Below are positions 50 to 21,031 of a stretch of DNA of 21,031 bases, piece after piece. A program made the translations under genes and the position numbers. The stretch spans positions 1 through 21,031 of the forward strand of contig JAYUCR010000397.1 of assembly GCA_043740165.1 (NCBI GenBank), written 5' to 3'. Positions within the stretch are counted from its first letter, which is position 1, and each line of letters opens with the position of its first letter. The notes beneath the pieces were generated by a model that had not been told where the DNA came from, made no database searches, and saw only the letters and a program-made list of their open reading frames with translations. Origin of the DNA: Acidobacteriota bacterium (GTDB lineage Bacteria > Acidobacteriota > Polarisedimenticolia > Gp22-AA2).

Positions 50-3000
50 TCATCGAGCTCCGCCGGGCCCCGGTGACTGCTCCCGTCCGCCAGGATCGAC
101 GGCCTTCTCGCCGCTCAGCGTGTTCAGCCGCTGCTTCAGTTCCGGCTGGTCCGGATTCAATCTGAGGGATTCGCGAAAAGCGCGGACAGCCTCGTCGGGC
201 ATCCCGAGCTTGAGGTCGATCTCCCCGAGGAGCTCCTGAAGTCCGGCCTCGCTCGGAAGGCGCTGGATCGCCGTGCGTATCAGATCCAGCGCCTCGCGCT
301 CACGCGATTGATCGAGGAGCCATCTTCCCAGGTTGAGGTACGCGGGGACGTAGAGCGGATTGATCTGTAATGCGCGGCGCATTTCGCTCTCCCCTTCTTT
401 CGCGTTCCCGCGTTTCAACAGGGCCAGCCCCAGGTTGTGGTGCACGTCGGCATACCCCGGATCCAGGGCAGCCGCCTTGCGGTAGGCGGCGATTTCGTCC
501 TCGGGGCGGCCGAGCCGTCCGAAAACCGCCCCGAGATTGTTGAACGCGGAGGCGTAGGAGGGATCGATGACCGTAGCGCGCTCGAGCTCCTGGCGCGCCT
601 CCTCCAGCCGGCCACCCAGATAGAGCAGCCCTCCGAAATTGGTGCGGACGGCGGCATTGTCCGGGTCGCGGCGAAGGGCATTGCGGAACTGCGTCTCGGC
701 GGCCTTCATGTCGCCGCGATCCTCGTAAACCAGGGCGAGGTTGCTGTAGGAGCCCGCGAAACTGGCGTCGGCGGCGATGGCCCGATGAAACGCCTCGATC
801 GCCGGTTCGATTTGTTTCCGGTTCTTCAGGATGACGCCGATGTTGTTGTAGGCCTCGGCGTAGTCCGGGTCGATCGCGACCACCTTCCGAAATTGCTCCA
901 GCGCCTCGTCGGTCCGCCCCAGCCGGTCAAAGAGGATGCCGAGGCTGTTGCGGGCGTCGGCGAAATTGGGCTCGTATTCCAGCGCGCGCCGGAAGTGCGT
1001 CTCCGCCCCGGCCGTGTCTCCCTGATCGAGCGCCATGTTGCCGAGCAGATTCTCAGCCTCCTTGGAACGGGGCTGCCGCTTCATGTGCTCATCGAGGGCC
1101 CGTGTCGCGGCGGCGTAGTCCTTCTTCTTGTAGTACGCGCGCGCCATGTTCAGGCGGGCGATCGTCAGGTCCTCGGAAGCCGCGACGGCCTTTTCGAACT
1201 CCCCCAGGGCGTCATCGTAGCGGCCCTGGCCGAGCAGGATGGTGCCGCGGTTATTGTGCGTGTTCGCCGTCTCCCCCGCCAGGTACCCGAGAGATCGGAG
1301 TTTTTCGATCCGCTCCGCGTCACCGGCAGCGTCGGGGCTCGCGCCCGACGGCGCCGGGGGGACGCCGCCCGCCGAGGAGCTGGAGCCGGGAGGCATTTCG
1401 GGTGGCGCCGCCTCCGGCCCCGCGGCGACCCTGGCCGGCGCCCCGGTCGCCGCCGGGTTGGCGGGGTTCTCCCATGATGGAATGTAGGCTTCGGGATGCT
1501 CCTTCAGGAATTCCGGGGCGAACGCCTCGGTGATCGGCCGCCCGTCCATGTCCTCGCCCACGGGCAAGCCGTACAGGCGCAACAGGGTGGGGGTGATGTC
1601 GAGCACGGAGGCCTCATCCAGCTCGACCCCGCGCCGGAATTCCGGGCCGTGCAGCACGAGAATCCCGTACTTACGATGCCAGTCCGCCGCGGCCCCGTAC
1701 CCGATGCGCGACTCGGTGAGCGGACGATTTTCGCCGGTCCTGAATCCATGGTCGGAGAGCACCATCACCGTGGTCGGATGGATCCCTTCCAGAAGTCGAC
1801 CCAATGCGGCGTCGGCCTGGACGTAGTATTCATCCACGACCCTCCCGAAGCGCTGCCGGGATTCGGCGTCGATGCCCTGCAGCGGCGGCGGCGCATAGGG
1901 CATGAACAGGTGCGCCGCCGTGTCGGTGCCCTCGAAATAGACCGCGGTGAAGTCGGTGTCATAGCGCGCCTCGAGCGCCAGTGCCACCCTCTCGTAGGTC
2001 CTGCCCGAGGCCAGAAGCGTCTTGAAGTTCTCGACCAGCCGGCTCTGATTTTCCGGCAGCGAGCTCGGATCCGGAGGCATCCGCATGAAGGGCGTCAGAT
2101 CCTGCATCAGGATGTTTTCCGGCGTCACGGTCAGCGATGTCACCAGCGCGTCCGCCTCGGGGGGCGAAACCTTGCCTTCGCGCGCCCCGCCGTCGACGGC
2201 GCGCGCGCCGAACAGCTGGTACGCGACCCGGTCGGAGACCACGAACCCGTTCACCTGCTCGGCGGGATAAGTCGCCCACCACCCGACGATTCCGACCCTC
2301 ACCCCGCGCTCTCCGAGCATGTTCCAGATCGCCTTGACGCGGCGCTGCGTCGCGCTGACCGGGACGCGCTCCCCTTCCCGCTCGGTGTTGGCCACGAAGT
2401 CCAGAATGCCGTGGCGCGCCGGCACCACTCCCGTCGCGATGCTGGTCCAGATGACCGGCGAAAGCATCGGATTGATGCTGCGCAGCCGGGCCCGAACCCC
2501 CTCGTGGACGAGCCGGGCAAGATGCGGCATCCGGCCGCTGCTCATCAACGGGTCGATGATGTTCCAGTCGGCGCCGTCCAGGCCGACGAGGAGCACCTTT
2601 CCCAGGGCGCCCCCGCGCGTCGCCGTCAGGGGGGTCCCGTTGTCGGCCCGGATGCGGACCCCCGGAACCTCGCACGACAGGAGGACCAGCCCCGCCTCCC
2701 GGAAGCGATCCCCCAGGGTGCGGCTGAGCGCCGCCTGGAGCTCCTCGGTGTGCGTCCCGGAGATATCCGCATAGCTGGCCGCCGCCAGGGCGCCACGGAT
2801 CGCCTCCAGGACCCATCGGCTGATGGCGTCGCCTTCCAGGCGCGGTCCGAGGGTCCGGTGCACCTCGATCAGCCGCTCCGGATCGACGCGGTAGCGCAGG
2901 GTCACCGAGGTTTCAACTTCGGTCCCTTCGCGCGTGGCGAGCGGCCGGCGGGAGCCGCCCAGGGAAATATCGAGGGTCGCTGAACGGACGGCGTAGAGGC

Positions 3001-3199
3001 TGATCCGGAACAGCCCCGGCGGGGCGAGGTGCCATCCCTCGGGCACGATGCGCGGCGAGATGAGGCCGAGCCGTGAATCCAGAACGGCAGCCCGGCCGTC
3101 GTCTTCGGTGCGGCGCAGGCCGGCTCCGAGCCAGACGCATAAAAACAGCAGGAGGACGCCGGCGGCCATACGGCGTCGTCTCAGCACCTCCGGTGTCAT
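50..3199 (-). CDS. Large membrane-anchored multidomain protein: N-terminal TM helix, SPFH/band-7-like segment, alkaline-phosphatase-superfamily (type I phosphodiesterase/nucleotide pyrophosphatase-like) domain, Pro/Ala/Ser/Gly-rich linker and about 11 C-terminal TPR repeats
   Basis: 1049-aa ORF. The N-terminus has a hydrophobic helix (AAGVLLLFLCVWLGAGL). VTLRYRVDPERLIEVHRTLG and the following segment resemble SPFH domains. GKVLLVGLDGADW...SPVIWTSIATGVVPARHGILDF...VLSDHGF match metal- and nucleophile-site motifs of the Phosphodiest/AP superfamily. A low-complexity PAATGAPARVAAGPEAAPPEMPPGSSSSAGGVPPAPSGASP linker follows. Repeated 34-aa A..Y.N.G......G....A...F..A...DP units (TPR) cover roughly nt 95-1260. 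No clear SD precedes the 3199 ATG; an alternative start is Met11. Confidence 0.75.
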   Translation of the reverse strand: MTPEVLRRRRMAAGVLLLFLCVWLGAGLRRTEDDGRAAVLDSRLGLISPRIVPEGWHLAPPGLFRISLYAVRSATLDISLGGSRRPLATREGTEVETSVTLRYRVDPERLIEVHRTLGPRLEGDAISRWVLEAIRGALAAASYADISGTHTEELQAALSRTLGDRFREAGLVLLSCEVPGVRIRADNGTPLTATRGGALGKVLLVGLDGADWNIIDPLMSSGRMPHLARLVHEGVRARLRSINPMLSPVIWTSIATGVVPARHGILDFVANTEREGERVPVSATQRRVKAIWNMLGERGVRVGIVGWWATYPAEQVNGFVVSDRVAYQLFGARAVDGGAREGKVSPPEADALVTSLTVTPENILMQDLTPFMRMPPDPSSLPENQSRLVENFKTLLASGRTYERVALALEARYDTDFTAVYFEGTDTAAHLFMPYAPPPLQGIDAESRQRFGRVVDEYYVQADAALGRLLEGIHPTTVMVLSDHGFRTGENRPLTESRIGYGAAADWHRKYGILVLHGPEFRRGVELDEASVLDITPTLLRLYGLPVGEDMDGRPITEAFAPEFLKEHPEAYIPSWENPANPAATGAPARVAAGPEAAPPEMPPGSSSSAGGVPPAPSGASPDAAGDAERIEKLRSLGYLAGETANTHNNRGTILLGQGRYDDALGEFEKAVAASEDLTIARLNMARAYYKKKDYAAATRALDEHMKRQPRSKEAENLLGNMALDQGDTAGAETHFRRALEYEPNFADARNSLGILFDRLGRTDEALEQFRKVVAIDPDYAEAYNNIGVILKNRKQIEPAIEAFHRAIAADASFAGSYSNLALVYEDRGDMKAAETQFRNALRRDPDNAAVRTNFGGLLYLGGRLEEARQELERATVIDPSYASAFNNLGAVFGRLGRPEDEIAAYRKAAALDPGYADVHHNLGLALLKRGNAKEGESEMRRALQINPLYVPAYLNLGRWLLDQSREREALDLIRTAIQRLPSEAGLQELLGEIDLKLGMPDEAVRAFRESLRLNPDQPELKQRLNTLSGEKAVDPGGREQSPGPGGAR

Positions 3200-3224
3200 G
3201 GGCCGGGTGGCGAGCGGAACCCGA

Positions 3225-5671
<2,447 letters not shown>

Positions 5672-5767
5672 GCTCAACTCCTCCGCCCGCCGCACCAGGC
5701 GGTGGGATCGTGTCCAGAAGATAAGGTCGGATGAAAGAGGTCAGGATACGGGAGGACGCCGCCTCCG

Positions 5768-12421: not shown

Positions 12422-14956
12422 CTACTGCGCGACGATATTCAGCAGCTTTCCCGGCAGGTAGATGATCTTGCGAATCGACTTGCCCGCGAGGTGCGCCTCG
12501 ACCCGCTGGTCGCCGCGCGCCAGGGCCACCGCCTCGGATTCGCCCGTCGACGCCGGCACGCGCAGGTGACCGCGGAGCCGCCCGTTGACCTGGACCACGA
12601 CCTCGACCAGGTCCTCGCGCATCCAGGCGGGATCGGCGGCCGGCCAGGGCTGCGCCATCGCCTCCCCCTTCCCCCCGAGGCCCTCCCAGATCGCCTCCGA
12701 GATGTGCGGTGCCAGCGGCTGCAGCAGGAGCGCCATGCTCATGCCGGCTTCCTTGATGTAGGGATCGTCCCCCGGCGCGGCGTCGCGGGCGAAGTCCTGG
12801 GTGGCGTTCAGGAGCTCCATCACCGAGGAGACCGGGGTGTTGAGGTGCAGCCGCTTCTCGATGTCGGAGGTCACGCGTTCGATCGTCTGATGGACCTTGC
12901 GCCGCAGGGCCGCCCGGCGCGCATCGTCCGCCCCGTCGAGCCCGGAGGGCAGGGAGGCCGCCGCGAGCGCCGCCGCGCGCGGCGCCAGCAGCCGCCACAC
13001 CTTCTCGAGGAACCGGAAGCACCCCTCGACCCCTTTCTCGTTCCACTCCAGATCCTTCTCCGGCGGCGCGGCGAACAGGGTGAACAGGCGCGTCGTGTCG
13101 GCGCCGTAGCGCCGGATCATCTCGTCAGGGTCGACGACGTTCCCCTTCGACTTCGACATCGCCGTCCCCCCCTTCAGCACCATCCCCTGGCAGAGGAGGC
13201 GGGTCACCGGCTCGTCGACGCGGACCAGGCCCAGGTCGCGCAGCACCTTGGTGAAGAAGCGGCAATAAATAAGATGAAGCGTCGCGTGGGTGATCCCTCC
13301 GACATACAGATCGATGGGGAACCAGGAAGCGACGATCTCGGGGTCGAACGGCGCCTGGTCGTTGCGCGGATCGCAGTACCGGTAGAAGTACCAGGCGGAG
13401 TCGAAGAAAGTGTCCATGGTATCGGTCTCGCGACGCGCCGCGCTGCCGCAGCGCGGACAGGTCGCCCGCACGAACGTCTCGGAGAGGGCCAGGGGCGATC
13501 CGCCCTGCCCGGTGAGCGGCACGTCCTCCGGGAGCAGCACCGGCAGGTCCCTGTCGGGCACCGGAACCACACCACAGCGCTCGCAGTAGACCACCGGGAT
13601 CGGGGTCCCCCAGTAACGCTGCCGCGAGATCCCCCAGTCGAGCAGGCGGAACTGCACCGTGGTGCGGGCGAACCCGCCCTCCTCGCCGGCCCGCGCCATC
13701 GCCGCGCGCGCTTCGGCCGAAGACAGGCCGGTGAAGCGCCCCGAATCGACGAGCACGCCGTCGGCGGTCATCGCCGCGAGGGGCGCTCCCCGCTCCGCCG
13801 GCGACGGAGAGGACTCCGGCGCTGGGGCAGCGGGCGCCTGCTCGCGGATCACGAACCGGATCGGCAGGCCGTAGCGCCGGGCGAATTCGAAATCGCGCTC
13901 GTCGTGCGCCGGGACCGCCATGATGGCGCCGGTGCCGTACCCCATCAGCACGAAGTTCCCGGCGTATACGGGTAAGCGCCCGCCGCTGCAGGGATTCCGG
14001 ACGACAAGCCCACTGTCGACCCCTTCCTTCTCCGCCAGATCGGCGCCGGGCCTGGTGACATCGCGCGCCGCGCCGACCCGCCGCCGGAATTCCTCCAGAC
14101 GAATCCCGGCGGGGCTCGCTGGCTCGACGCGCCGCAACACCGGGTGCTCCGGGGCGACCACGCAGAAGGTCGCGCCGAAGATGGTGTCGAGACGGGTGGT
14201 GAAAATCTCCAGCGCCTCCCCGGTCTCCGCGGACCCGTCGAGAATCGGGAAGCGCACCACGGCCCCAACGCTTCGGCCAATCCAGTTCTGCTGCATCAGC
14301 CGGACCTTCTCCGGCCAGCCCGGCAGCCGATCCAGGCCGGCGAGCAACTCCTCCGAGTAGGCGGAGATGCGCAGGAACCACTGCTCCAGCTCGCGGCGCG
14401 ACACGACCGAATCGCAGCGCCAGCAGCGCCCCGCCTCGACCTGCTCGTTCGCCAGGACGGTCTGGCAGGAGTCGCACCAGTTCACGTCCCGCCGGCTGCG
14501 GTAGGCCAGACCCCGCTCCAGCATCCGGAGAAAAAACCACTGGTTCCAGCGGTAGTAGTCGGGCCGGTGGGCGGCGATCTCGCGCGTCCAATCGTAGGAG
14601 AAGCCGAGCCGGCGGAGCTGTTCCCCCATGACGGCGATGTTCTCGTTGGTCCACTTCGCGGGAGGAATGCCGCGCTGAATGGCGGCGTTCTCCGCCGGCA
14701 TCCCGAACGAATCCCACCCCATCGGATGGAGCACCTGGTCGCCGCGCATCCGGCGGAACCGGGCCACCGCGTCCCCGATGGCGTAGTTGCGCACGTGCCC
14801 CATGTGCAGCCGTCCCGATGGATACGGCAGCATCTCGAGGCAATAGAACTTCCGCCCGGCGGCGCGCGCCGGCGCGCGAAACCCCCCGGCCGCGCGCCAG
14901 CGCTCCTGCCAGGCGCGCTCGATGGCGTCGAACTGATCGCGGTAATCGCCCTGCAT
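12422..14956 (-). CDS. leuS: Leucyl-tRNA synthetase
   Basis: Class-I aaRS motifs are present: PYPSGRLHMGHVRNY (HIGH) and VLKGGTAMSKSKGNVV (KMSKS), plus the Zn-binding CDSC...CWRC and CPRC motifs. The track ORF begins at 15034. However, Met27 (ATG 14956, MQGDYRDQFDAIERAWQERW) aligns with the E. coli LeuS N-terminus MQEQYRPEEIESKVQLHW, so 14956 is taken as the start. Confidence 0.95.
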   Translation of the reverse strand: MQGDYRDQFDAIERAWQERWRAAGGFRAPARAAGRKFYCLEMLPYPSGRLHMGHVRNYAIGDAVARFRRMRGDQVLHPMGWDSFGMPAENAAIQRGIPPAKWTNENIAVMGEQLRRLGFSYDWTREIAAHRPDYYRWNQWFFLRMLERGLAYRSRRDVNWCDSCQTVLANEQVEAGRCWRCDSVVSRRELEQWFLRISAYSEELLAGLDRLPGWPEKVRLMQQNWIGRSVGAVVRFPILDGSAETGEALEIFTTRLDTIFGATFCVVAPEHPVLRRVEPASPAGIRLEEFRRRVGAARDVTRPGADLAEKEGVDSGLVVRNPCSGGRLPVYAGNFVLMGYGTGAIMAVPAHDERDFEFARRYGLPIRFVIREQAPAAPAPESSPSPAERGAPLAAMTADGVLVDSGRFTGLSSAEARAAMARAGEEGGFARTTVQFRLLDWGISRQRYWGTPIPVVYCERCGVVPVPDRDLPVLLPEDVPLTGQGGSPLALSETFVRATCPRCGSAARRETDTMDTFFDSAWYFYRYCDPRNDQAPFDPEIVASWFPIDLYVGGITHATLHLIYCRFFTKVLRDLGLVRVDEPVTRLLCQGMVLKGGTAMSKSKGNVVDPDEMIRRYGADTTRLFTLFAAPPEKDLEWNEKGVEGCFRFLEKVWRLLAPRAAALAAASLPSGLDGADDARRAALRRKVHQTIERVTSDIEKRLHLNTPVSSVMELLNATQDFARDAAPGDDPYIKEAGMSMALLLQPLAPHISEAIWEGLGGKGEAMAQPWPAADPAWMREDLVEVVVQVNGRLRGHLRVPASTGESEAVALARGDQRVEAHLAGKSIRKIIYLPGKLLNIVAQ

Positions 14957-14967
14957 AGAGGCGGATT

Positions 14968-15164
14968 CTAGGAGCCTGTCCGAGTATTCGCAAGGGCCGC
15001 GTTCGCCGCGCCGCGGCGAACCCGGAGGGCGCATGGGGATTGCGGCCCCATGCTTCGTGGCTCCGCCTCATCAAGTGCACCCACATCGATTCCTCCTCGC
15101 GTCTCGCCTGGGACACGCAAGCCCCATGCGCGCGACCCATGCCAATACTCGGACCGGCTCCTAG
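14968..15164. repeat. Long-range inverted repeat (21 bp, 20/21 complementary) enclosing nested GC-rich hairpins in the leuS / RiPP-operon divergent intergenic region
   Basis: The left arm ctaggagcctgtccgagtatt (14968-14988) is the reverse complement of the right arm aatactcggaccggctcctag (15144-15164), with one mismatch. Inside the repeat are a palindrome gttcgccgcg/cgcggcgaac (15001-15010 / 15012-15021) and a hairpin gcatgggg-attgcgg-ccccatgc (15031-15053). Extra copies of ccccatgc occur at 15122-15129 and cccatgc at 15136-15142. Confidence 0.7.
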
Positions 15165-15220
15165 TCGATTTCAGAATTGCAAGCGGGGCCTTCCGCCTTC
15201 CTTCCACCCCCCGCGTCACC

Positions 15221-15248
15221 TTGCGAGTCTGTCATCGGAACCTATATT
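15221..15248 (+). promoter_or_regulatory. Candidate sigma70-type promoter for the plus-strand operon (TTGCGA-N16-TATATT)
   Basis: TTGCGA (15221-15226) matches TTGACA at 4/6. A 16-nt spacer follows, then TATATT (15243-15248), matching TATAAT at 5/6. The site is about 40 nt upstream of the first gene, in the least GC-rich part of the window. It is followed by the SD-like GGGGAGAGGGG (15275-15285). Confidence 0.35.
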
Positions 15249-15285
15249 CCCTCCGCTCAAGACGCGGAAATAACCGGGGAGAGGG

Positions 15286-16428
15286 GTGATGCAGGAAGCG
15301 ACGAGGCCGGTAGACATAGAGGAAGACCCCGGACCGTCACAGGGGCTCGACCTCATTGGCCTGCTCGCGGCGCCGGGGCCGATGGGGGCCGCGCTCCGGT
15401 CGGCGATGCGCGATCTCCCCCCCTCCGCGGTCCCGGGACTCGTGGAGCGGCTGGTCTACCACCGCATCGACGGCCTGGCCTGGCGCGCCATCGCCGGCCT
15501 TCCGGCGGACGAGATCGACCCCTGGCTCCGCGCCACGCTGCGCCGCCGGCACCAGCAGCGCAGCGCCGCGGTCCTGGCGCAGGGACTGGGGCTCGCCGAG
15601 GTGCTCGATCACCTGACGCGGGCCGGCGTGCCGGTCGCGGTGACGCGCGGGCTGCGGGTCATCGAGTGGATCTACCGTGACACGGGGGCGAGGCCGTTCG
15701 AGGATCACGATCTCCTGGTCCGGCCCGCCGACGAGCCGCTGGCGTGCGCCGTCCTGCAGCGCCTGGGGTACGAGGAACGCGCCCCCCGCCTTTTCCGCCG
15801 CACCACCATCACGCTGGACCTGCACACCGACCCGCTCGGAGCGCGCCGCCGCCCGACGCGCGCGCAGCTCTTCCCGATCGACGTCGAGGCGCTGTTCCGT
15901 GACGCCAGCCCCGGCTGGATCGCCGGCGGCCCGGCGATGATCCTGGCCCCCGAGGACGAGATCCTGCTGCTCGCGCTGCACGTCGTGAAACATTCCTTCG
16001 ATCGCCTGATCCGCACCGCCGACCTGGCGCACCTGGTCGCCGTGCACGGCAACGCCATCTGCTGGGAAAGGGTTCGGGAGCGCGCCGAGGAGGCGCGCGC
16101 CACGCGGCTCCTCGGCCTGGCGTTTGGCGCCGCGACGCCGTTCGGCATCACGGTGCCGGCGGCGGTGCGCCTGCCGGAGCCTTTCGCCGGCCTCGAAGGG
16201 CTGCTGCTCGATCGCGTCCGCGCCTTCCGTCCCCTCCCCTACTGCGGAGAGGTGCTGATGGCGATGGCCGCTCCGCGCTTCCTCGATCGCCTGCGCTACG
16301 TCCTCGATGCGCTCGTCCCGGCGGGCGAGGCGCCGGCGGGCGGCTGGTCGGCGGCGGAGATCCCCCGCCGCAGCGTGATTCTGCTCGACGGCGCCGCGCG
16401 CCGGATGCGTGAAAGGAGACGGGCGTGA
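15286..16428 (+). CDS. Nucleotidyltransferase family protein (NTP_transf_5 / PF14907-like, the type associated with RiPP and HprK-like kinase clusters)
   Basis: 380-aa ORF. It has FEDHDLLVRPAD (the D-x-D nucleotidyltransferase motif in the DIDLLV-like context typical of PF14907) and the downstream helical region LLLALHVVKHSFDRLIRTADLAHL typical of this family. The start is either GTG 15286 or the adjacent ATG 15289, after the GGGGAGAGGGG SD. The stop overlaps the next gene (GTGA). Confidence 0.7.
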   Translation: MMQEATRPVDIEEDPGPSQGLDLIGLLAAPGPMGAALRSAMRDLPPSAVPGLVERLVYHRIDGLAWRAIAGLPADEIDPWLRATLRRRHQQRSAAVLAQGLGLAEVLDHLTRAGVPVAVTRGLRVIEWIYRDTGARPFEDHDLLVRPADEPLACAVLQRLGYEERAPRLFRRTTITLDLHTDPLGARRRPTRAQLFPIDVEALFRDASPGWIAGGPAMILAPEDEILLLALHVVKHSFDRLIRTADLAHLVAVHGNAICWERVRERAEEARATRLLGLAFGAATPFGITVPAAVRLPEPFAGLEGLLLDRVRAFRPLPYCGEVLMAMAAPRFLDRLRYVLDALVPAGEAPAGGWSAAEIPRRSVILLDGAARRMRERRRA

Positions 16429-16730
16429 TCGAACCTGGAACCGCACGTTACATCCCCTCCCCCGACGTGGTGACGCGCAACATCGCCGGCGAGCACCTGC
16501 TGGTGCCGGTGCGCACCGGTGTCGCGCAGATGGACTACCTGTACACCGCCGACGAGGTGGGGAGCGTCATCTTCTCCCTGCTCGACGGGCAGCGCGACGC
16601 GACCGCCATCGGCCGCCATGTCGCGGAGCTGTTCGAGGTCGACGCGGCGCAGGCCACGGCCGACGTGGCGGCCTTCCTCCAGGAGCTGGAACAGGCCGGA
16701 CTGGTCCGCCTGGCCGGGGAGGACCGTTGA
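16425..16730 (+). CDS. PqqD-family protein (stand-alone RiPP recognition element, RRE)
   Basis: 101-aa ORF with the PqqD pattern: VVTRNIAGEHLLVPV.....YLYTADEVGSVIFSLLDGQRDATAIGRHVAELFEVDAAQATADVAAFLQELEQAGLV. The GTG start at 16425 is preceded by AAGGAG and overlaps the upstream stop (GTGA). Its stop overlaps the next start (TTGA). Confidence 0.85.
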   Translation: MIEPGTARYIPSPDVVTRNIAGEHLLVPVRTGVAQMDYLYTADEVGSVIFSLLDGQRDATAIGRHVAELFEVDAAQATADVAAFLQELEQAGLVRLAGEDR

Positions 16731-18031
16731 GCGCCTGCTCCCCGGTCACGTACCAGGAGTTCGGCAAGAGCGTGATGCAGGCATGCGCCGGGGCACGCGT
16801 GCCGCTGTCCGGCTCGTTCGAGCTGACCTTCAAGTGCAACCTGCGCTGCGTGCACTGCTACATCCCGGACTTCTCCGGGCGCGACGAGATGACCACCTCC
16901 GAGGTGCAGCGGATCCTGAGCGAGGCGGCCGATGAGGGATGCCTCTGGATGCTGCTCACCGGCGGCGAGGTCCTGTCGCGCGCCGACTTCCGCGAGATCT
17001 ACCTGCACGCCAAGCGCCTGGGGCTGCTGCTGACCGTGTTCAGCAACGGCACCCTCCTGGACGAACGGATCGCCGATCTGCTGGCCGAGTACCCGCCGCG
17101 GGGTATCGAGATCACCCTCTATGGGATGTCGGACGCGACGTATCTGCGCACCACCGGCTCACCGGGGCGTTTCACGCGGGTCAAGCGGGCGGTCGAGCTG
17201 CTGGCGGAGCGCCGCATCGACCTCACCCTGAAGGCGATCGCGATGGAGGAGCTGCGCGACGAGATCCCGGTCATGCAGGCCTGGGCGGCGTCGATGGGGA
17301 TCCGCTTCCGGTACGACGGCACCATTCACGGCCGGCTCGACGGCTCGCTCAGCCCCACGGCGGCGCGTTCCACCCCGGAGCGGCTGGTGCAGCACGACAT
17401 CAACGACCCGCGGCGGCGCGCCGACTGGATGACCTTCTACCGCGACTACGTCAAGCCGGCGCGCAAGAGCGAGATGCTGATGTCGTGCGGCGCCGGGGTG
17501 CAGAGCTTCCACGTCGACCCCAAGGGGACCCTGCTGTCGTGCGAGGCGCTCAACCTCGACGCCTACGATCTGCGCCGCGGCACGTTCCGGGAAGGCTGGT
17601 ACGGCATCGTCGGCCGCGTGCGCGAGCGCCGCGCGGCGGCCCACAACGTCTGCGCCGGCTGCGAGATCAAAGCCCTCTGCGATCGCTGCCCGGCCACGGC
17701 GCTGCTCGAGACCGGCAGCCCCGACGGCTGGATCCCCTACTACTGCGAAGTGACCCACAGGCGGGCCTCCTTCCTGGAGGCCGAGCTGGGAAACACGGAA
17801 GCCGCGGCGCGCTACATGGCCCACGCCGAGAAGGTGGCCGGCGGGTGGACTCCCGAAGGGGTCATCCTGCCGCGCGCCTCGGCGCTGCGCGCGAGCGCCG
17901 CCCCGGCGGGCGGCTGCGCGTCCGGCGGATGCACCTCGGGCGGGTGCGGCAAGCCTGCCGCGGCCGCCGCCAGTCCCCAGCCGTTGCAGATCGATTTGAA
18001 CCGCAGCAACACGATGGAGAGACAGCGATGA
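16727..18031 (+). CDS. Radical SAM / SPASM-domain peptide-modifying enzyme
   Basis: It has the CX3CX2C cluster motif (FKCNLRCVHCY), the GGE motif (LLTGGEVLSRADF) and TNGTLL-like FSNGTLL. A full SPASM signature is present: C-x12-G-x4-C (CGAGVQSFHVDPKGTLLSC) followed by CAGCEIKALCDRC (CX2CX5CX2C). The track ORF (16409) extends upstream through the PqqD gene in another frame. The likely start is TTG 16727 (GGGGAGGA SD 5-6 nt upstream, TTGA overlap with the PqqD stop). Alternatives are GTG 16772 and ATG 16775. The C-terminus carries a GGCASGGCTSGGCG tail. Confidence 0.88.
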   Translation: MSACSPVTYQEFGKSVMQACAGARVPLSGSFELTFKCNLRCVHCYIPDFSGRDEMTTSEVQRILSEAADEGCLWMLLTGGEVLSRADFREIYLHAKRLGLLLTVFSNGTLLDERIADLLAEYPPRGIEITLYGMSDATYLRTTGSPGRFTRVKRAVELLAERRIDLTLKAIAMEELRDEIPVMQAWAASMGIRFRYDGTIHGRLDGSLSPTAARSTPERLVQHDINDPRRRADWMTFYRDYVKPARKSEMLMSCGAGVQSFHVDPKGTLLSCEALNLDAYDLRRGTFREGWYGIVGRVRERRAAAHNVCAGCEIKALCDRCPATALLETGSPDGWIPYYCEVTHRRASFLEAELGNTEAAARYMAHAEKVAGGWTPEGVILPRASALRASAAPAGGCASGGCTSGGCGKPAAAAASPQPLQIDLNRSNTMERQR

Positions 18032-18219
18032 CACGCAGCCCCGAGAAGCCCGGCGCGCCGGCGCGCCGGTCGTACCACCCGCCGCAGCTGCAGCGGGTCA
18101 GCCTGGTCCCCGACGAAGCCGTTCTCGCCTCCTGCAAGACCGCGACCGTGCAGGGGCCGCTGGGCGCCTCGGCAAAATGCACCGGCACCCCTTCACTCTG
18201 CTCGCACGATGGCTCCTAA
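18028..18219 (+). CDS. Putative RiPP precursor peptide (63 aa): MTRSPEKPGAPARRSYHPPQLQRVSLVPDEAVLASCKTATVQGPLGASAKCTGTPSLCSHDGS
   Basis: This ORF is not listed separately in the track; it is the tail of the 16939-18219 ORF. Its ATG at 18028 overlaps the rSAM stop (ATGA) and is preceded by GGAGAG 7 nt upstream. G or C occupies the third codon position in 55 of 63 codons, as in the neighbouring genes. It fills what would otherwise be a 177-nt gap in an operon of overlapping genes. The N-terminal half is charged and Pro-rich with a YxxPxL motif. The C-terminal half has Cys36, Cys51 and Cys58, many Thr/Ser/Gly, and a terminal Ser. Confidence 0.7.
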   Translation: MTRSPEKPGAPARRSYHPPQLQRVSLVPDEAVLASCKTATVQGPLGASAKCTGTPSLCSHDGS

Positions 18220-19132
18220 CACACCCCGTCCGTTGATCCTGGAGATCGCCGGCATCGGCCTCTCCGTGCGGCCGGCCGAGCCGGGGATCGATCTGGTCAC
18301 CGACGCCGCCCACGAGCCGTTTCTGGCGGAAGGGATCGGCGACGACTGCGCCTCGATCGTCCTGGCGCCGGTGGCCTCCACCCGGCCGCCGCGCACCAAG
18401 GGCCGGACGATCTTCGACACCGGCTGCGTCTGGCGTCTGGAGGAGAGCGGCGACGGGCACCTCCTGACGCTGCGCTCGCCGGTGTTCGGCGCCGACCCGT
18501 ATCTCGCGGTGGAATTCGACGCCCAGTATTCCCGCGGCCAGGGGGAAACGCTCGACGGCGGCCCTCATCTGCTGGGAGCGACCATGCACCCTTTCGTCTA
18601 TCCGTTCGACGAGGTGGTCTTCCTGGCCCGCCTGGCGCGCGGCCGCGGCGTGCTGGTGCATGCCTGCGGTCTCACCTATCGCGGGCGCGGCATCCTGCTG
18701 CTCGGCACCTCGGGCGCCGGCAAGAGCACCTCGGCGCGCCTCTGGTCCGAGCGCCCCGCCGCCCGCGTCCTCTCGGACGATCGCATCGTCATCCGCCGCG
18801 ACGACGAGGGTTATCGCATCTTCGGGACCCCCTGGCACGGGGACGCCGGGCTCGAGTCGCCCGGCTCGGCGCCGCTGTGCGCCGTCTTCATCCTCGAGCA
18901 GGCGCCGCGCAATCGCGTCGTCGAGATGCCTCCCTCGCAGGCGGTGGCCCAGATGATGGTGCGCGCCTTTCCCGCCATGTGGGATCAGGGAGGCCTGGAG
19001 TTCGCGGTGAAGTTTCTGTCGCAGATGACCGAGCGGGTCCCGGTGCGGCGGCTGCAGTTCCTGCCCGAAGCCTCGGCGGTCGATTGCGTGCTCGGGGCGA
19101 TCGATGGGGGGCTCGATGCCGAAGGGGCCTGA
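18209..19132 (+). CDS. HPr kinase/phosphorylase-like P-loop kinase (HprK C-terminal-domain family; RiPP-associated kinase type)
   Basis: 307-aa ORF. VLVHACGLTYRGRGILLLGTSGAGKSTSARLWSE....VLSDDRIVI matches the HprK C-terminal-domain pattern H...v...g.GvLi.G.SG.GKS..a..L......lvsDD.v. The ATG at 18209 lies inside the last codons of the precursor ORF (11-nt overlap). Confidence 0.8.
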   Translation: MAPNTPRPLILEIAGIGLSVRPAEPGIDLVTDAAHEPFLAEGIGDDCASIVLAPVASTRPPRTKGRTIFDTGCVWRLEESGDGHLLTLRSPVFGADPYLAVEFDAQYSRGQGETLDGGPHLLGATMHPFVYPFDEVVFLARLARGRGVLVHACGLTYRGRGILLLGTSGAGKSTSARLWSERPAARVLSDDRIVIRRDDEGYRIFGTPWHGDAGLESPGSAPLCAVFILEQAPRNRVVEMPPSQAVAQMMVRAFPAMWDQGGLEFAVKFLSQMTERVPVRRLQFLPEASAVDCVLGAIDGGLDAEGA

Positions 19133-19136
19133 AGAA

Positions 19137-21031
19137 GTGAACGGGGGCTCTCCCGGGTCGAGCCCGGCCCCGCCGGTCCTCCTGGCGGAGCGCCAGGGAG
19201 TGGTGTTCGTCGCCACGTCACAAAGCGTCGACGGCCTGCGCGTCCCGCGGCGTTACTGGGGGACCGACATGGGTGTCGTGGCGATCCCGGCGCACGAGGA
19301 GGAGGTGCGGGCCTGCGAGCTGCTCCCCCCTTCGGATGCCGGCGCCTGGCCGCGCGCCCTGCCGCGCCCCGACCTGCTCTCTCCGGTTCTGTCGCGTCTC
19401 CTCAGCGTCGAGCACATGGAGATGAGTCTCTATCCGGGGCGCGACGGCCTGAAAGCGATGCTGATCGCCCCGGACGGGCAGCGCCTGCCGTTCCCGATCG
19501 CCCCCAAGGATGCGCTCGGCCTCCTGGCCGCGGTCTTCCACCATGCGCCGCGCGGTGTCGTCGCCCTGAACGCGAGCCGCCCCGGGCGGCTGCTCCTCGC
19601 CGTCCAGCCGGCCGCCCGGCCGCACGAGTACCGCGTGCGGCTCGCCGGCGCCGTGGCCACACCGAAGCCGGGCAGCCTGCCCGAGATTGGCGCCTCGATG
19701 TCGCTCCTCGAAATCCTGAACGAATCGCTCGATCGTCCCTCGGGATTGATGCTGGTCGCCGGGGGCAGCTCCTCGGGGCGCAGCACGACCCTGGACCTTC
19801 TGGCCGGATCGCTCCTGGCGCGCGGCCGGAGCGGCGGCCGGATCGGCCCGCGGCGCGAGACCGCGAACCCGAACCTCCCCTGGCTCGCCGACGCCGTCAC
19901 CGACTGGCCGTTTCCGGAGAGCCTCAAGGAGGCGGCGCCCGACTTCGTCATGATGGAGCGGCTGGAAGGACTGCGGCACCTGCTGCTCGCCGCCCGCCTC
20001 GCCGGGACGGGGACGCTGGTGCTGGCCGGCGCGCCCCCCGCCGAGCCGCAGGCGCTGGTGCGCCGCGTGGCGCGCGAGCTCGAGGCCGGCGCCGGACCCG
20101 AGGTGCCGGTGATGGTGCTGGCGCAGTCCCTGCTGCGCACCGTCTGCCGCGGATGCACCACGTGGACGGCGATCCCGGCGGCGCGCGCGTTGCGCCTCGG
20201 GTTCCACCGCTGGGATCTGGAGGAGATGGAGCGCCGCGGCGGGCTCGCCGTCCCGGCCCGCAAAGGCTGCCCCACCTGTGCCGGGACCGGCATCGCCGGG
20301 CTCACGGGGGTGTTCAGCTATGCCGGGTCGGACGGCCTCTCGAGCGCGCTGCCGACGCTGCGCGAAGAAGGCTGGCGCAAGGTTGTCGAAGGCATCGCCG
20401 ACGTCGATGACGTCGCGGCCCTGCCGGGTGGGCATCACGCCATGCGTTCCCTGCGCGAGATCGCCGTGCTGGCCGGCACGACGCCGATGGCGCGCCATGA
20501 GCCCGACGGCGTCGCCACCGCGGCGTCGGCCCGTCCGGTCGCCGCGCGACCCGCCGCGGCCCCGCCGGTCAAGTCCGGCGCCGTCGCGCGCGGCTCCTCC
20601 TCCGCCGACGTCGACATCCTCGTGGCGCTGTTGCGCGCCGCGCGCGCCGGGCAGCCGCCGCAGCCGGAGCGCATGGCCGAGCTGGCGCGCGGCGTCGCCG
20701 GCCGGGCGATGCAGGGCGAGCTCGACACCCAGCTCCAGCCGCCGCCCGCCGGCTACCACATGGGGCGCCGGGCGGTGAACACGGCGGTCCTGGCGGTGCG
20801 GATCGTGGCGGCGCTGGGTCAGACCGAGGACGCTCCGGCGACGGCCACGCTGGCGCTGCTCCATGACATCGGGCTGCTCGAGGCGGGTGTCGATCCGGGG
20901 GCCGAATCGGGCCCTCAACTGAGCGAAGCCGCTCTCGATCCCCAGGGGGCACGGATGCGCCCCGCCACCATGCTGCGCGCGCTTGGCCTTCCCGACGCCG
21001 AGCTGGCGGCCCGGATCGCCGACGCGCAGAC
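19137..21031 (+). CDS. GspE/PilB-like (type II/IV secretion ATPase fold) protein with degenerate catalytic motifs, fused to a C-terminal HD domain; 3' end outside the window
   Basis: I translated this frame by hand; it is open from 18957 to the window end and is absent from the track because it is truncated. The T2SSE-like order is kept. There is an N-terminal GspE-N-like segment (VLLAERQGVVFVATSQSVDGL....GVVAIPAHEEEV). Walker A-like GLMLVAGGSSSGRSTTL stands where GPTGSGKTTTL is expected. Walker B-like PDFVMMERLEG stands for PDVIMVGEIRD. His-box-like TGTLVLAGAP stands for TGHLVLSTLH. LAQSLLRTVCRGC...KGCPTCAGTGIAGLTGVF is the tetracysteine motif. After an Ala/Pro linker comes an HD motif, ATLALLHDIGLL (His-Asp at 20862-20867). 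The start is uncertain: GTG 19137 (4 nt after the kinase stop), GTG 19200 or ATG 19269. Confidence 0.65.
   Translation, partial: MNGGSPGSSPAPPVLLAERQGVVFVATSQSVDGLRVPRRYWGTDMGVVAIPAHEEEVRACELLPPSDAGAWPRALPRPDLLSPVLSRLLSVEHMEMSLYPGRDGLKAMLIAPDGQRLPFPIAPKDALGLLAAVFHHAPRGVVALNASRPGRLLLAVQPAARPHEYRVRLAGAVATPKPGSLPEIGASMSLLEILNESLDRPSGLMLVAGGSSSGRSTTLDLLAGSLLARGRSGGRIGPRRETANPNLPWLADAVTDWPFPESLKEAAPDFVMMERLEGLRHLLLAARLAGTGTLVLAGAPPAEPQALVRRVARELEAGAGPEVPVMVLAQSLLRTVCRGCTTWTAIPAARALRLGFHRWDLEEMERRGGLAVPARKGCPTCAGTGIAGLTGVFSYAGSDGLSSALPTLREEGWRKVVEGIADVDDVAALPGGHHAMRSLREIAVLAGTTPMARHEPDGVATAASARPVAARPAAAPPVKSGAVARGSSSADVDILVALLRAARAGQPPQPERMAELARGVAGRAMQGELDTQLQPPPAGYHMGRRAVNTAVLAVRIVAALGQTEDAPATATLALLHDIGLLEAGVDPGAESGPQLSEAALDPQGARMRPATMLRALGLPDAELAARIADAQ

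Follow-up and report, generated by a model that had tools for sequence, protein, structure and literature searches.

Results

The operon and its precursor-like peptide

The window analysed here is a stretch of 21,031 nucleotides from an Acidobacteriota bacterium (contig JAYUCR010000397.1 of assembly GCA_043740165.1). Tightly packed on its plus strand is an operon encoding a PF14907 nucleotidyltransferase, a PqqD-family recognition element of the kind that serves peptides made by ribosomes and modified after translation (RiPPs), a radical S-adenosylmethionine (SAM)/SPASM enzyme, a precursor-like peptide, a ScmC-family kinase-like protein and a T2SSE-like ATPase. We conclude that the operon is conserved, that its genes are coupled in translation, and that its products mature a peptide made on the ribosome. 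The best-supported mechanism, albeit unproven, is that the ScmC-family protein phosphorylates the hydroxyl of the C-terminal serine of the peptide, Ser63, and we consider this somewhat more probable than its denial.

The peptide gene (18028..18219, plus strand) encodes 63 aa (MTRSPEKPGAPARRSYHPPQLQRVSLVPDEAVLASCKTATVQGPLGASAKCTGTPSLCSHDGS) and is present in a single copy within the window. Its ATG forms an ATGA overlap with the stop codon of the radical SAM gene, and a GGAGAG Shine-Dalgarno sequence is located 8 nt to the 5' side. Scans of the peptide against Pfam and NCBIfam gave no match at E <= 0.01, and a profile search returned at least 5030 protein clusters, every one of which is named 'hypothetical' and has no Pfam domain. 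To describe its conservation, 259 unique homologous sequences were pooled, and 14 columns are (near-)invariant: Y16, P19, L26, P28, E30, A31, V32, L33, C36, K37, G43, P44, C51 and C58. The N-terminal ones fall in a leader motif, Y16-x-x-P19-x-L21 (18073..18090, plus strand), in which Y16 is conserved at 99% and P19 at 100%, position 21 being V, L, I or A. It is of the [Y/W]xxPx[L/V/I/F/A] type bound by the discrete recognition elements of lasso peptides and linear polyphosphorylated peptides (LPPs; PMC13381572), in agreement with the PqqD protein, whose top NCBIfam matches are lasso-type PqqD chaperones, each below its cut-off. The motif is followed by the invariant block P28-[D/E]-E-A-V-L-[A/G]-x-C36-K37 (18112..18138, plus strand; P28 99%, E30 100%, A31 99%, V32 100%, L33 99%, C36 and K37 100%), and C51 and C58 are each conserved at 99% or more.

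The last codon of the peptide (18214..18216, plus strand) encodes Ser63, the proposed phospho-acceptor, which is the terminal residue across the homologues: it is Ser in 258 and Thr in one of the 259 unique peptides, and the preceding G62 is conserved at 84%. The original prediction had named the lack of a conserved C-terminal Ser/Thr in orthologous precursors as a reason to abandon the idea of C-terminal phosphorylation; such a residue is found in 259/259, including the peptides whose genes do not overlap the kinase gene. Since the conservation is equally strong in clades without the overlap, it is not caused by the overlap. Apart from the terminal residue, no column of the peptide exceeds 68% Ser plus Thr, the positions 38, 41 and 60 being Ser/Thr in 54-68%. 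Ser59, which had been put forward as a further site, is Ser in 29% of the peptides and is not conserved.

The ScmC-family kinase-like protein

The gene directly downstream (18209..19132, plus strand) encodes a P-loop kinase-like protein of 307 aa that belongs to the ScmC family (PF27840) and has the fold of HPr(Ser) kinase/phosphorylase (HprK/P) and ATP-dependent PEP carboxykinase (PEPCK). The PF27840 match is precomputed for an identical protein and for all close homologues, and ScmC is the name given in the locus tables. Across 22 homologues, with identities down to 35%, the Walker A motif or P-loop GTSGAGKST (residues 166-174; 18704..18730, plus strand) has G166, G169, G171, K172 and T174 invariant. 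In the SDD motif (residues 189-191; 18773..18781, plus strand), S189 and D190 are invariant and D191 is conserved at 90% or more. The statement of the original prediction that both motifs are intact is thus borne out. The SDD motif takes the place of the ADD found in HprK/P and of the pair D158/D159 in PsmK, the HprK-family kinase of pseudomycoidin biosynthesis, in which the DD motif is required and the D158A/D159A variant is inactive (PMC6993621). In a profile alignment, H151, GTSGAGKST and SDDR (189-192) pair with MHG...GDSGVGKSE...ADDR of the Lactobacillus casei HprK/P (1jb1) at identical spacing. The protein therefore has the GxSGxGKS loop, the preceding His, invariant in homologues, and the DD(R) 18 residues past the Lys that characterize HprK/P, together with an invariant motif of its own, GTPWHG.

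Family-level scores are low. The top NCBIfam match, ScmC (TIGR04249), scores 37.7 bits, where the equivalog cut-off is 125, and covers residues 142-253 alone, and HprK-related kinase B scores 34 bits. A PDB search with the kinase profile returned mostly ABC-transporter P-loops, and only its HprK/P rows were informative.

An AlphaFold2 model built from 22 sequences is confident, with a pLDDT of 91.4, and Foldseek aligns PEPCK with it over the whole query, both domains included, at a TM score of about 0.50. Full-length HprK/P (1ko7) reaches about 0.30-0.31; HprK/P chains align with 120-133 residues of the C-terminal domain alone, and a HprK/P-type N-domain is not matched. The N-terminal half, in which nothing recognizable had been seen at the outset, corresponds in fold to the N-domain of PEPCK, as the match over both domains of the model implies, and the P-loop domain completes a PEPCK-like two-domain fold. 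As modelled, the protein resembles PEPCK in miniature, with a cleft between its domains, at 307 aa compared with about 520 aa.

Overlap between the peptide and kinase genes

The kinase ATG at 18209 lies within the last codons of the peptide gene (cac gAT Ggc tcc taa), so that the two genes overlap by 11 nt (18209..18219, plus strand), as originally noted for the ...SHDGS codons. This ATG is the earliest possible kinase start downstream of an in-frame stop. In the close clade, to which the window belongs, the start codon is found exactly at stop-10 in 34/34 distinct loci (ATG in 24, GTG in 10). The peptide tails vary despite this fixed start (HDGS, HSGS, HNGS, MNES, QNAS, HNAS, RDAS and HSAS), and the overlap restricts position -3 to D/N/S and position -2 to G/A/E. 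In the other clades, ATG or GTG occurs at stop-10 in 0/117 loci and TTG in 13, and in the 82 loci inspected there is usually a gap between the peptide stop and the first ATG.

The overlap had been read as a device that ties translation of the kinase to completion of the precursor. However, every junction of the operon overlaps: there is a GTGA at 16425, a TTGA at 16727, an ATGA at 18028 and the 11-nt overlap at 18209, and the ATPase gene adds one of 17 nt if its start is the ATG at 19116 given by the gene caller. Because all junctions overlap and most of the family is without this particular overlap, we rejected the regulatory reading. The 11-nt overlap amounts to translational coupling of the ordinary kind, fixed in a single clade, and is not a regulatory device dedicated to the kinase.

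Relatives across genomes

A genome scan found a relative in at least 574 species genomes, mostly of Acidobacteriota (Polarisedimenticolia, Thermoanaerobaculia, Acidoferrales and Terriglobales), with a few labelled Chloroflexota or deltaproteobacteria. Where loci were selected by the kinase, a homologue of the peptide is encoded directly 5' of it in 82 of 86. As an independent sample, 80 metagenome loci were picked by the peptide motif alone; the terminal residue is Ser in all 80, the kinase gene follows directly in 71 of the 73 with enough downstream DNA (97%), and a radical SAM gene is present in 68/71. The order PqqD-radical SAM-peptide-ScmC is kept even at 34-42% kinase identity.

A few loci depart from this order. 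In the peptide-selected loci L124 and L150 the peptide ends in Gly-Ser and no kinase gene is found within 400 nt, with ample downstream DNA available; L150 also has no radical SAM gene. These peptides may be orphan or extra precursor copies. In L022 (2432-4565), a locus of the close clade, PF14907 is directly followed by the kinase, with no PqqD, radical SAM or peptide homologue detected between them, and this locus may be a deletion variant.

Other genes of the operon

The first gene of the operon (15286..16428, plus strand) encodes the PF14907 (NTP_transf_5) nucleotidyltransferase of 380 aa (Pfam E = 7.4e-31; its 108 bits exceed the cut-off of 31.2). Both Asp residues of its DxD motif (D140/D142) are conserved at 95% or more in 23 orthologues, and the gene lies 5' in all close-clade loci with enough DNA. 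It is preceded by a promoter-like site, TTGCGA-16-TATATT (15221..15248, plus strand), about 38 nt to its 5' side and recognized by consensus match alone; 2 such sites were found where 0.2 were expected. No terminator-like site was detected in 14900-21031, which agrees with a single transcription unit.

The PqqD-family RiPP recognition element of 101 aa (16425..16730, plus strand; PF05402, 54 bits) starts with the GTG of the GTGA overlap and has an AAGGAG Shine-Dalgarno sequence on its 5' side. The radical SAM/SPASM enzyme of 434 aa (16727..18031, plus strand; PF04055, 76 bits) starts with the TTG of the TTGA overlap with the PqqD stop, and the orthologue with the same start is called at 432-437 aa. 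Its Cys motifs are CX3CX2C (CNLRCVHC) at residues 37-44, a SPASM-type CX12GX4C at 254-272 and CX2CX5CX2C at 309-321. Among named maturase families, 49 NCBIfam matches were obtained, all of them far below cut-off, with the top one at 80 bits against 500.

Downstream of the kinase gene, the T2SSE/PilB-like ATPase with a C-terminal HD-like region (19116..21031, plus strand) starts either at the ATG at 19116 or at the GTG at 19137 and is truncated by the window end. Its full length, as seen in the public assembly L168 (9908-12253), is 781 aa, and the HD-like region contains HDIGLLE; every family score is far below cut-off. The gene is restricted to the close clade, where it sits between the kinase gene and polysaccharide export genes. 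The continuation of the operon on the source contig can be read from L168, which is 99.99% identical: the ATPase is followed by a fusion of a SpI-like domain with a Wza-like exporter, a Wzc-like protein, a Wzy_C protein, a 530-aa protein and a glycosyltransferase, all overlapping or 1-8 nt apart. In L001 and L002, the operon likewise runs on into the polysaccharide export genes.

The SpI-like peptidase has its closest match in the archaeal type of signal peptidase I, scoring 47.9 bits with TIGR02228, whose cut-off is 51.85. In the close clade, it is the N-terminal part of the Wza-like exporter encoded two genes 3' of the kinase and past the window end (L168 12250-13665, about 3.2 kb beyond that end; L001 9110-10564; L002 9333-10733). 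In distant clades, it is a separate gene of 152-155 aa right after the kinase. There, the kinase and SpI-like genes are followed by a gene for a giant Peptidase_C25 (gingipain-like) protein of 1221-2312 aa with CLIPPER or beta-helix regions (L086 9396-15275; L087 11340-18278; P0118 contig 1927-5592), for which a role as a processing protease and one as a surface protein are both conceivable.

The position of PF14907 also differs in distant clades. A tblastn search had suggested that it is missing from them; this was overturned by an iterative profile search with larger flanks, which located some copies 6-7 kb down- or upstream. In L086 and the P0118 contig, it comes after a small peptidase and the giant Peptidase_C25 gene, and in L087 it belongs to a neighbouring lasso-like cluster.

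That cluster (L087, 178-5398), which lies beside a distant member of the family, encodes PF14907, a 2OG-Fe(II) oxygenase, an Asn-synthase-like cyclase, a 54-aa peptide, a HprK-like protein of 334 aa and PqqD; a B2 peptidase was not found there. Its peptide has the leader Y-S-R-P-Q-L...T and a terminal Thr. Its HprK-like protein has T-E-N opposite SDD in a BLASTP alignment and matches the window kinase across 56 residues alone.

Genomic surroundings

On the 5' side of the operon, the minus strand carries housekeeping genes: leuS, lptE, holA, guaA, dnaE, metK, ahcY and a gene for a TPR/phosphodiesterase protein. The genes of S-adenosylhomocysteine hydrolase and SAM synthetase adjoin each other (3225-5695, minus strand) at some 10 kb from the operon with the radical SAM gene, a proximity that is probably coincidental housekeeping synteny. 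The TPR/phosphodiesterase protein (50-3199, minus strand) has 1049 aa, with Band 7/SPFH and type I phosphodiesterase/nucleotide pyrophosphatase domains and a long TPR array. A second public assembly, L169, is 99.9% identical to the operon from window position 14968 on, that is, from just upstream of the leuS start. On the 5' side of this point, EamA and methyltransferase genes replace leuS-lptE-holA, and the switch stems from a rearrangement, from the entire block being mobile or from a chimeric assembly.

Discussion

As described above, the peptide, the PqqD-type element, the radical SAM enzyme and the ScmC-family protein are encoded together almost throughout the family, and the peptide ends in a nearly invariant Ser. 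The original prediction framed them in terms of lasso clusters. Neither an Asn-synthase-like cyclase nor a B2 transglutaminase-like peptidase is encoded by any gene of the operon or the window, or by the source contig; without a lasso cyclase and a B2 peptidase, this is not a lasso cluster, and what is found instead is a radical SAM/SPASM and PqqD operon. The nearest characterized systems are nevertheless the lasso peptides paeninodin and pseudomycoidin, together with the LPPs of Bacillota.

In pseudomycoidin biosynthesis, the C-terminal Ser receives one to three phosphates from PsmK, and the NTP-transferase PsmN puts a hexose on the phosphate so added (PMC6993621). With the paeninodin and pseudomycoidin systems the window operon shares a PqqD/B1 element, a HprK-like kinase, a precursor that ends in Ser, an NTP-transferase and a [Y/W]xxP leader; it differs from them in having a radical SAM enzyme in place of the cyclase and B2. 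Besides the kinase LppK, which is HprK-like, the core of the LPP systems includes a SpI-like peptidase and a discrete recognition element as well as an NTP-transferase and an MsbA exporter; their leaders carry a YxxP motif, and their clusters sit in capsule loci, as paeninodin clusters do (Popov et al., Nat Commun 2026; PMC13381572). The likeness extends to the recognition element, the HprK-like kinase, the NTP-transferase, the SpI-like peptidase, the YxxP leader, the polysaccharide setting and the lack of a macrolactam cyclase. The core set of an LPP system is thus present, with all matches distant and with the SpI-like domain outside the window, on the same contig.

There are differences from LPPs as well. 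The window operon has a radical SAM/SPASM enzyme and three invariant Cys residues, contains no ABC transporter and hence no MsbA-type exporter, encodes a kinase of the ScmC type (PF27840) and belongs to an Acidobacteriota host, and in its clade the SpI-like domain is fused to Wza, unlike in LPP systems. As for the peptides, LPPs have the leader YxxPxVLxHQxIxFETxxS and a variable C-terminus, of which only YxxPx[V/L] is shared; here the motif L-x-P-[E/D]-E-A-V-L-x-x-C-K and a C-terminal G-S are conserved. The conserved hydroxyl is that of the C-terminal Ser alone, whereas an LPP has Ser3 after the FET motif.

The closest named relative of the kinase-like protein is ScmC of the SynChlorMet system, with which the window shares the PF27840 family, the top NCBIfam match and the pairing of a PqqD homologue with a PqqE-like radical SAM/SPASM enzyme. 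The window operon has one radical SAM gene rather than two (ScmE and ScmF), however, and its matches to ScmE, ScmF and ScmD all stay far under their cut-offs. Of the sactipeptide/ranthipeptide-like systems, the operon has both the CX3CX2C motif and the SPASM Cys motif, and no named maturase family is reached. Taken together, the system is a phospho-decoration module of the paeninodin/LPP kind joined to a radical SAM/SPASM peptide system, widespread in Acidobacteriota and unannotated. A literature search on acidobacterial RiPPs with a radical SAM enzyme and a HPr kinase found nothing on this system.

We propose the following sequence of events, in order of falling confidence. The PqqD-type protein probably binds the YxxPxL leader of the 63-aa product. 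The radical SAM/SPASM enzyme would then alter the core, most plausibly at C36, C51 and C58, for example by thioether cross-links. The ScmC-family protein would move a phosphate from ATP onto the Ser63 hydroxyl, and PF14907 may extend this phosphate as PsmN does in pseudomycoidin. At last, the SpI-like domain might cut off the leader, and the product might be functionally linked to the polysaccharide machinery. The last two steps are the weakest of the scheme.

The part assigned to PF14907 follows the original prediction, which associated it with the kinase. The conserved DxD motif and the PsmN precedent argue for this association; in other clades, PF14907 is placed differently or was not seen within the fetched flanks. 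Literature searches on PF14907/NTP_transf_5 found only unrelated phosphonate work.

Several observations weigh against phosphorylation of Ser63 and its extension. LppK polyphosphorylates Ser3 of the core and not a C-terminal Ser (PMC13381572), which implies that C-terminal targeting cannot be assumed from kinase family membership alone; the general statement that HprK-family kinases act on the C-terminal Ser thus holds for PsmK and fails for LppK. When the NTP-transferase LppN was deleted, no change was visible in the heterologous host (PMC13381572), and distant clades show PF14907 in a minority of loci within the fetched flanks, although these flanks of 7 kb are too short to decide most loci. 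As for the enzyme itself, sequence likeness to HprK/P is limited to about 55 residues, with 18.3 bits against 240 for HPr(Ser) kinase (TIGR00679) and 20.6 against 33.3 for Hpr_kinase_C (PF07475), and in fold the protein is as near to PEPCK, a kinase of small molecules, as it is to a kinase of proteins. No experiments on the ScmC family and no SynChlorMet papers were found in the literature, where 'SCMC' was met in unrelated senses. Moreover, the invariant terminal Ser could serve another enzyme, such as the Wzy_C protein of this clade.

These points bear on the alternatives to different degrees. The ScmC-family protein might act on the peptide elsewhere than at the Ser63 hydroxyl: by transient phosphorylation for elimination, as class III/IV lanthipeptide synthetases do, by activation of the C-terminal carboxylate, or by assisting the radical SAM enzyme as its ATP-dependent partner or scaffold. 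LppK is the other characterized non-lasso HprK-like RiPP kinase, and its preference for Ser3 speaks for such a role, as does the PEPCK-like two-domain cleft, which fits carboxylate-bearing substrates, and as do the frequent Ser/Thr at positions 38, 41 and 60. Nevertheless, only the last column rises above 68% Ser/Thr, an invariant terminal hydroxyl is most simply the acceptor, and the kinase is kept wherever the peptide occurs, so that we regard action at another site as rather unlikely, yet deserving of serious attention. We give still less credence, perhaps that due to an outsider, to the proposal that the terminal Ser is an O-glycosylation or polysaccharide-attachment site for Wzy_C, an O-antigen-ligase/PglL/PilO-type enzyme, with the ScmC-family protein doing something else, such as phosphorylating an export component, a lipid carrier or a sugar. 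In Pseudomonas aeruginosa 1244, the pilin is glycosylated on its C-terminal Ser by PilO/TfpO, which has a Wzy_C domain, and we count this in favor of the proposal along with the gap-free continuation of the operon into the SpI::Wza, Wzc-like, Wzy_C, 530-aa and glycosyltransferase genes and with the capsule loci in which LPP and paeninodin clusters are found. However, the distant-clade loci with listed gene content, L086, L087 and the P0118 contig, keep the Ser and ScmC with no Wzy_C, Wza or Wzc gene beside the core, having SpI-like and giant C25 genes instead. What is co-conserved with the Ser everywhere is therefore the set of PqqD, the radical SAM enzyme and ScmC. The proposal is also compatible with phosphorylation of Ser63, since a glycan could sit on the phosphate.

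Two simpler explanations fare worse. It is highly improbable that the kinase-like protein is a regulatory HPr(Ser) kinase/phosphorylase homologue that acts on a HPr-like protein and has nothing to do with the small open reading frame. The weak matches to Hpr_kinase_C and TIGR00679 at the P-loop region and the shared catalytic motifs would be expected from such an enzyme, but TIGR00679 remains at 18.3 of 240 bits, the N-domain is PEPCK-like in the model (TM score of 0.31 to 1ko7), no HPr gene is present in the window, and the kinase adjoins the peptide in 97% of the peptide-selected loci. Canonical HprK/P identity was rejected on the cut-offs and the N-domain architecture. The chance that the small reading frame is spurious and overlaps its neighbor by accident is negligible: GC-rich DNA yields many spurious reading frames, dozens of them in the window, but this one has its amino acids conserved down to 34-42% kinase identity, with 14 (near-)invariant columns, at least 5030 clusters, its own Shine-Dalgarno sequence and ATGA coupling. 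The peptide conservation has already refuted that explanation.

Phosphorylation of Ser63 remains our preferred reading. To our knowledge, phosphorylation is rare among ribosomal peptide natural products, and it is in Bacillota alone that the module made up of a HprK-like kinase, a recognition element and an NTP-transferase has been characterized, in paeninodin-type lasso peptides and, in 2026, in LPPs. The locus described here joins such a phospho-decoration module to a radical SAM/SPASM maturase, in a peptide family that is abundant in soil Acidobacteriota and has no Pfam or NCBIfam entry. Its single candidate acceptor, the invariant C-terminal Ser, offers a directly testable substrate for the ScmC family and for the GeoRSP, SynChlorMet and HprK-related systems, which, like the families ScmC (TIGR04249) and HprK-related kinase A and B (TIGR04352 and TIGR04355), are defined by comparative genomics alone.

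A more far-reaching scheme, which we regard as speculative and improbable as a whole, is that the radical-SAM-cross-linked peptide is phosphorylated on Ser by a kinase of miniature PEPCK fold, that the phosphate serves for glycan attachment through PF14907 and/or Wzy_C/Wza/Wzc, and that the peptide is a primer or anchor of exopolysaccharide, in a widespread acidobacterial class of at least 5000 clusters. The link to polysaccharide export, which is unexplained for LPPs and paeninodins, is tighter here, with the SpI-like domain fused to Wza in a gap-free operon, and it may help to show what phospho-peptides are for.

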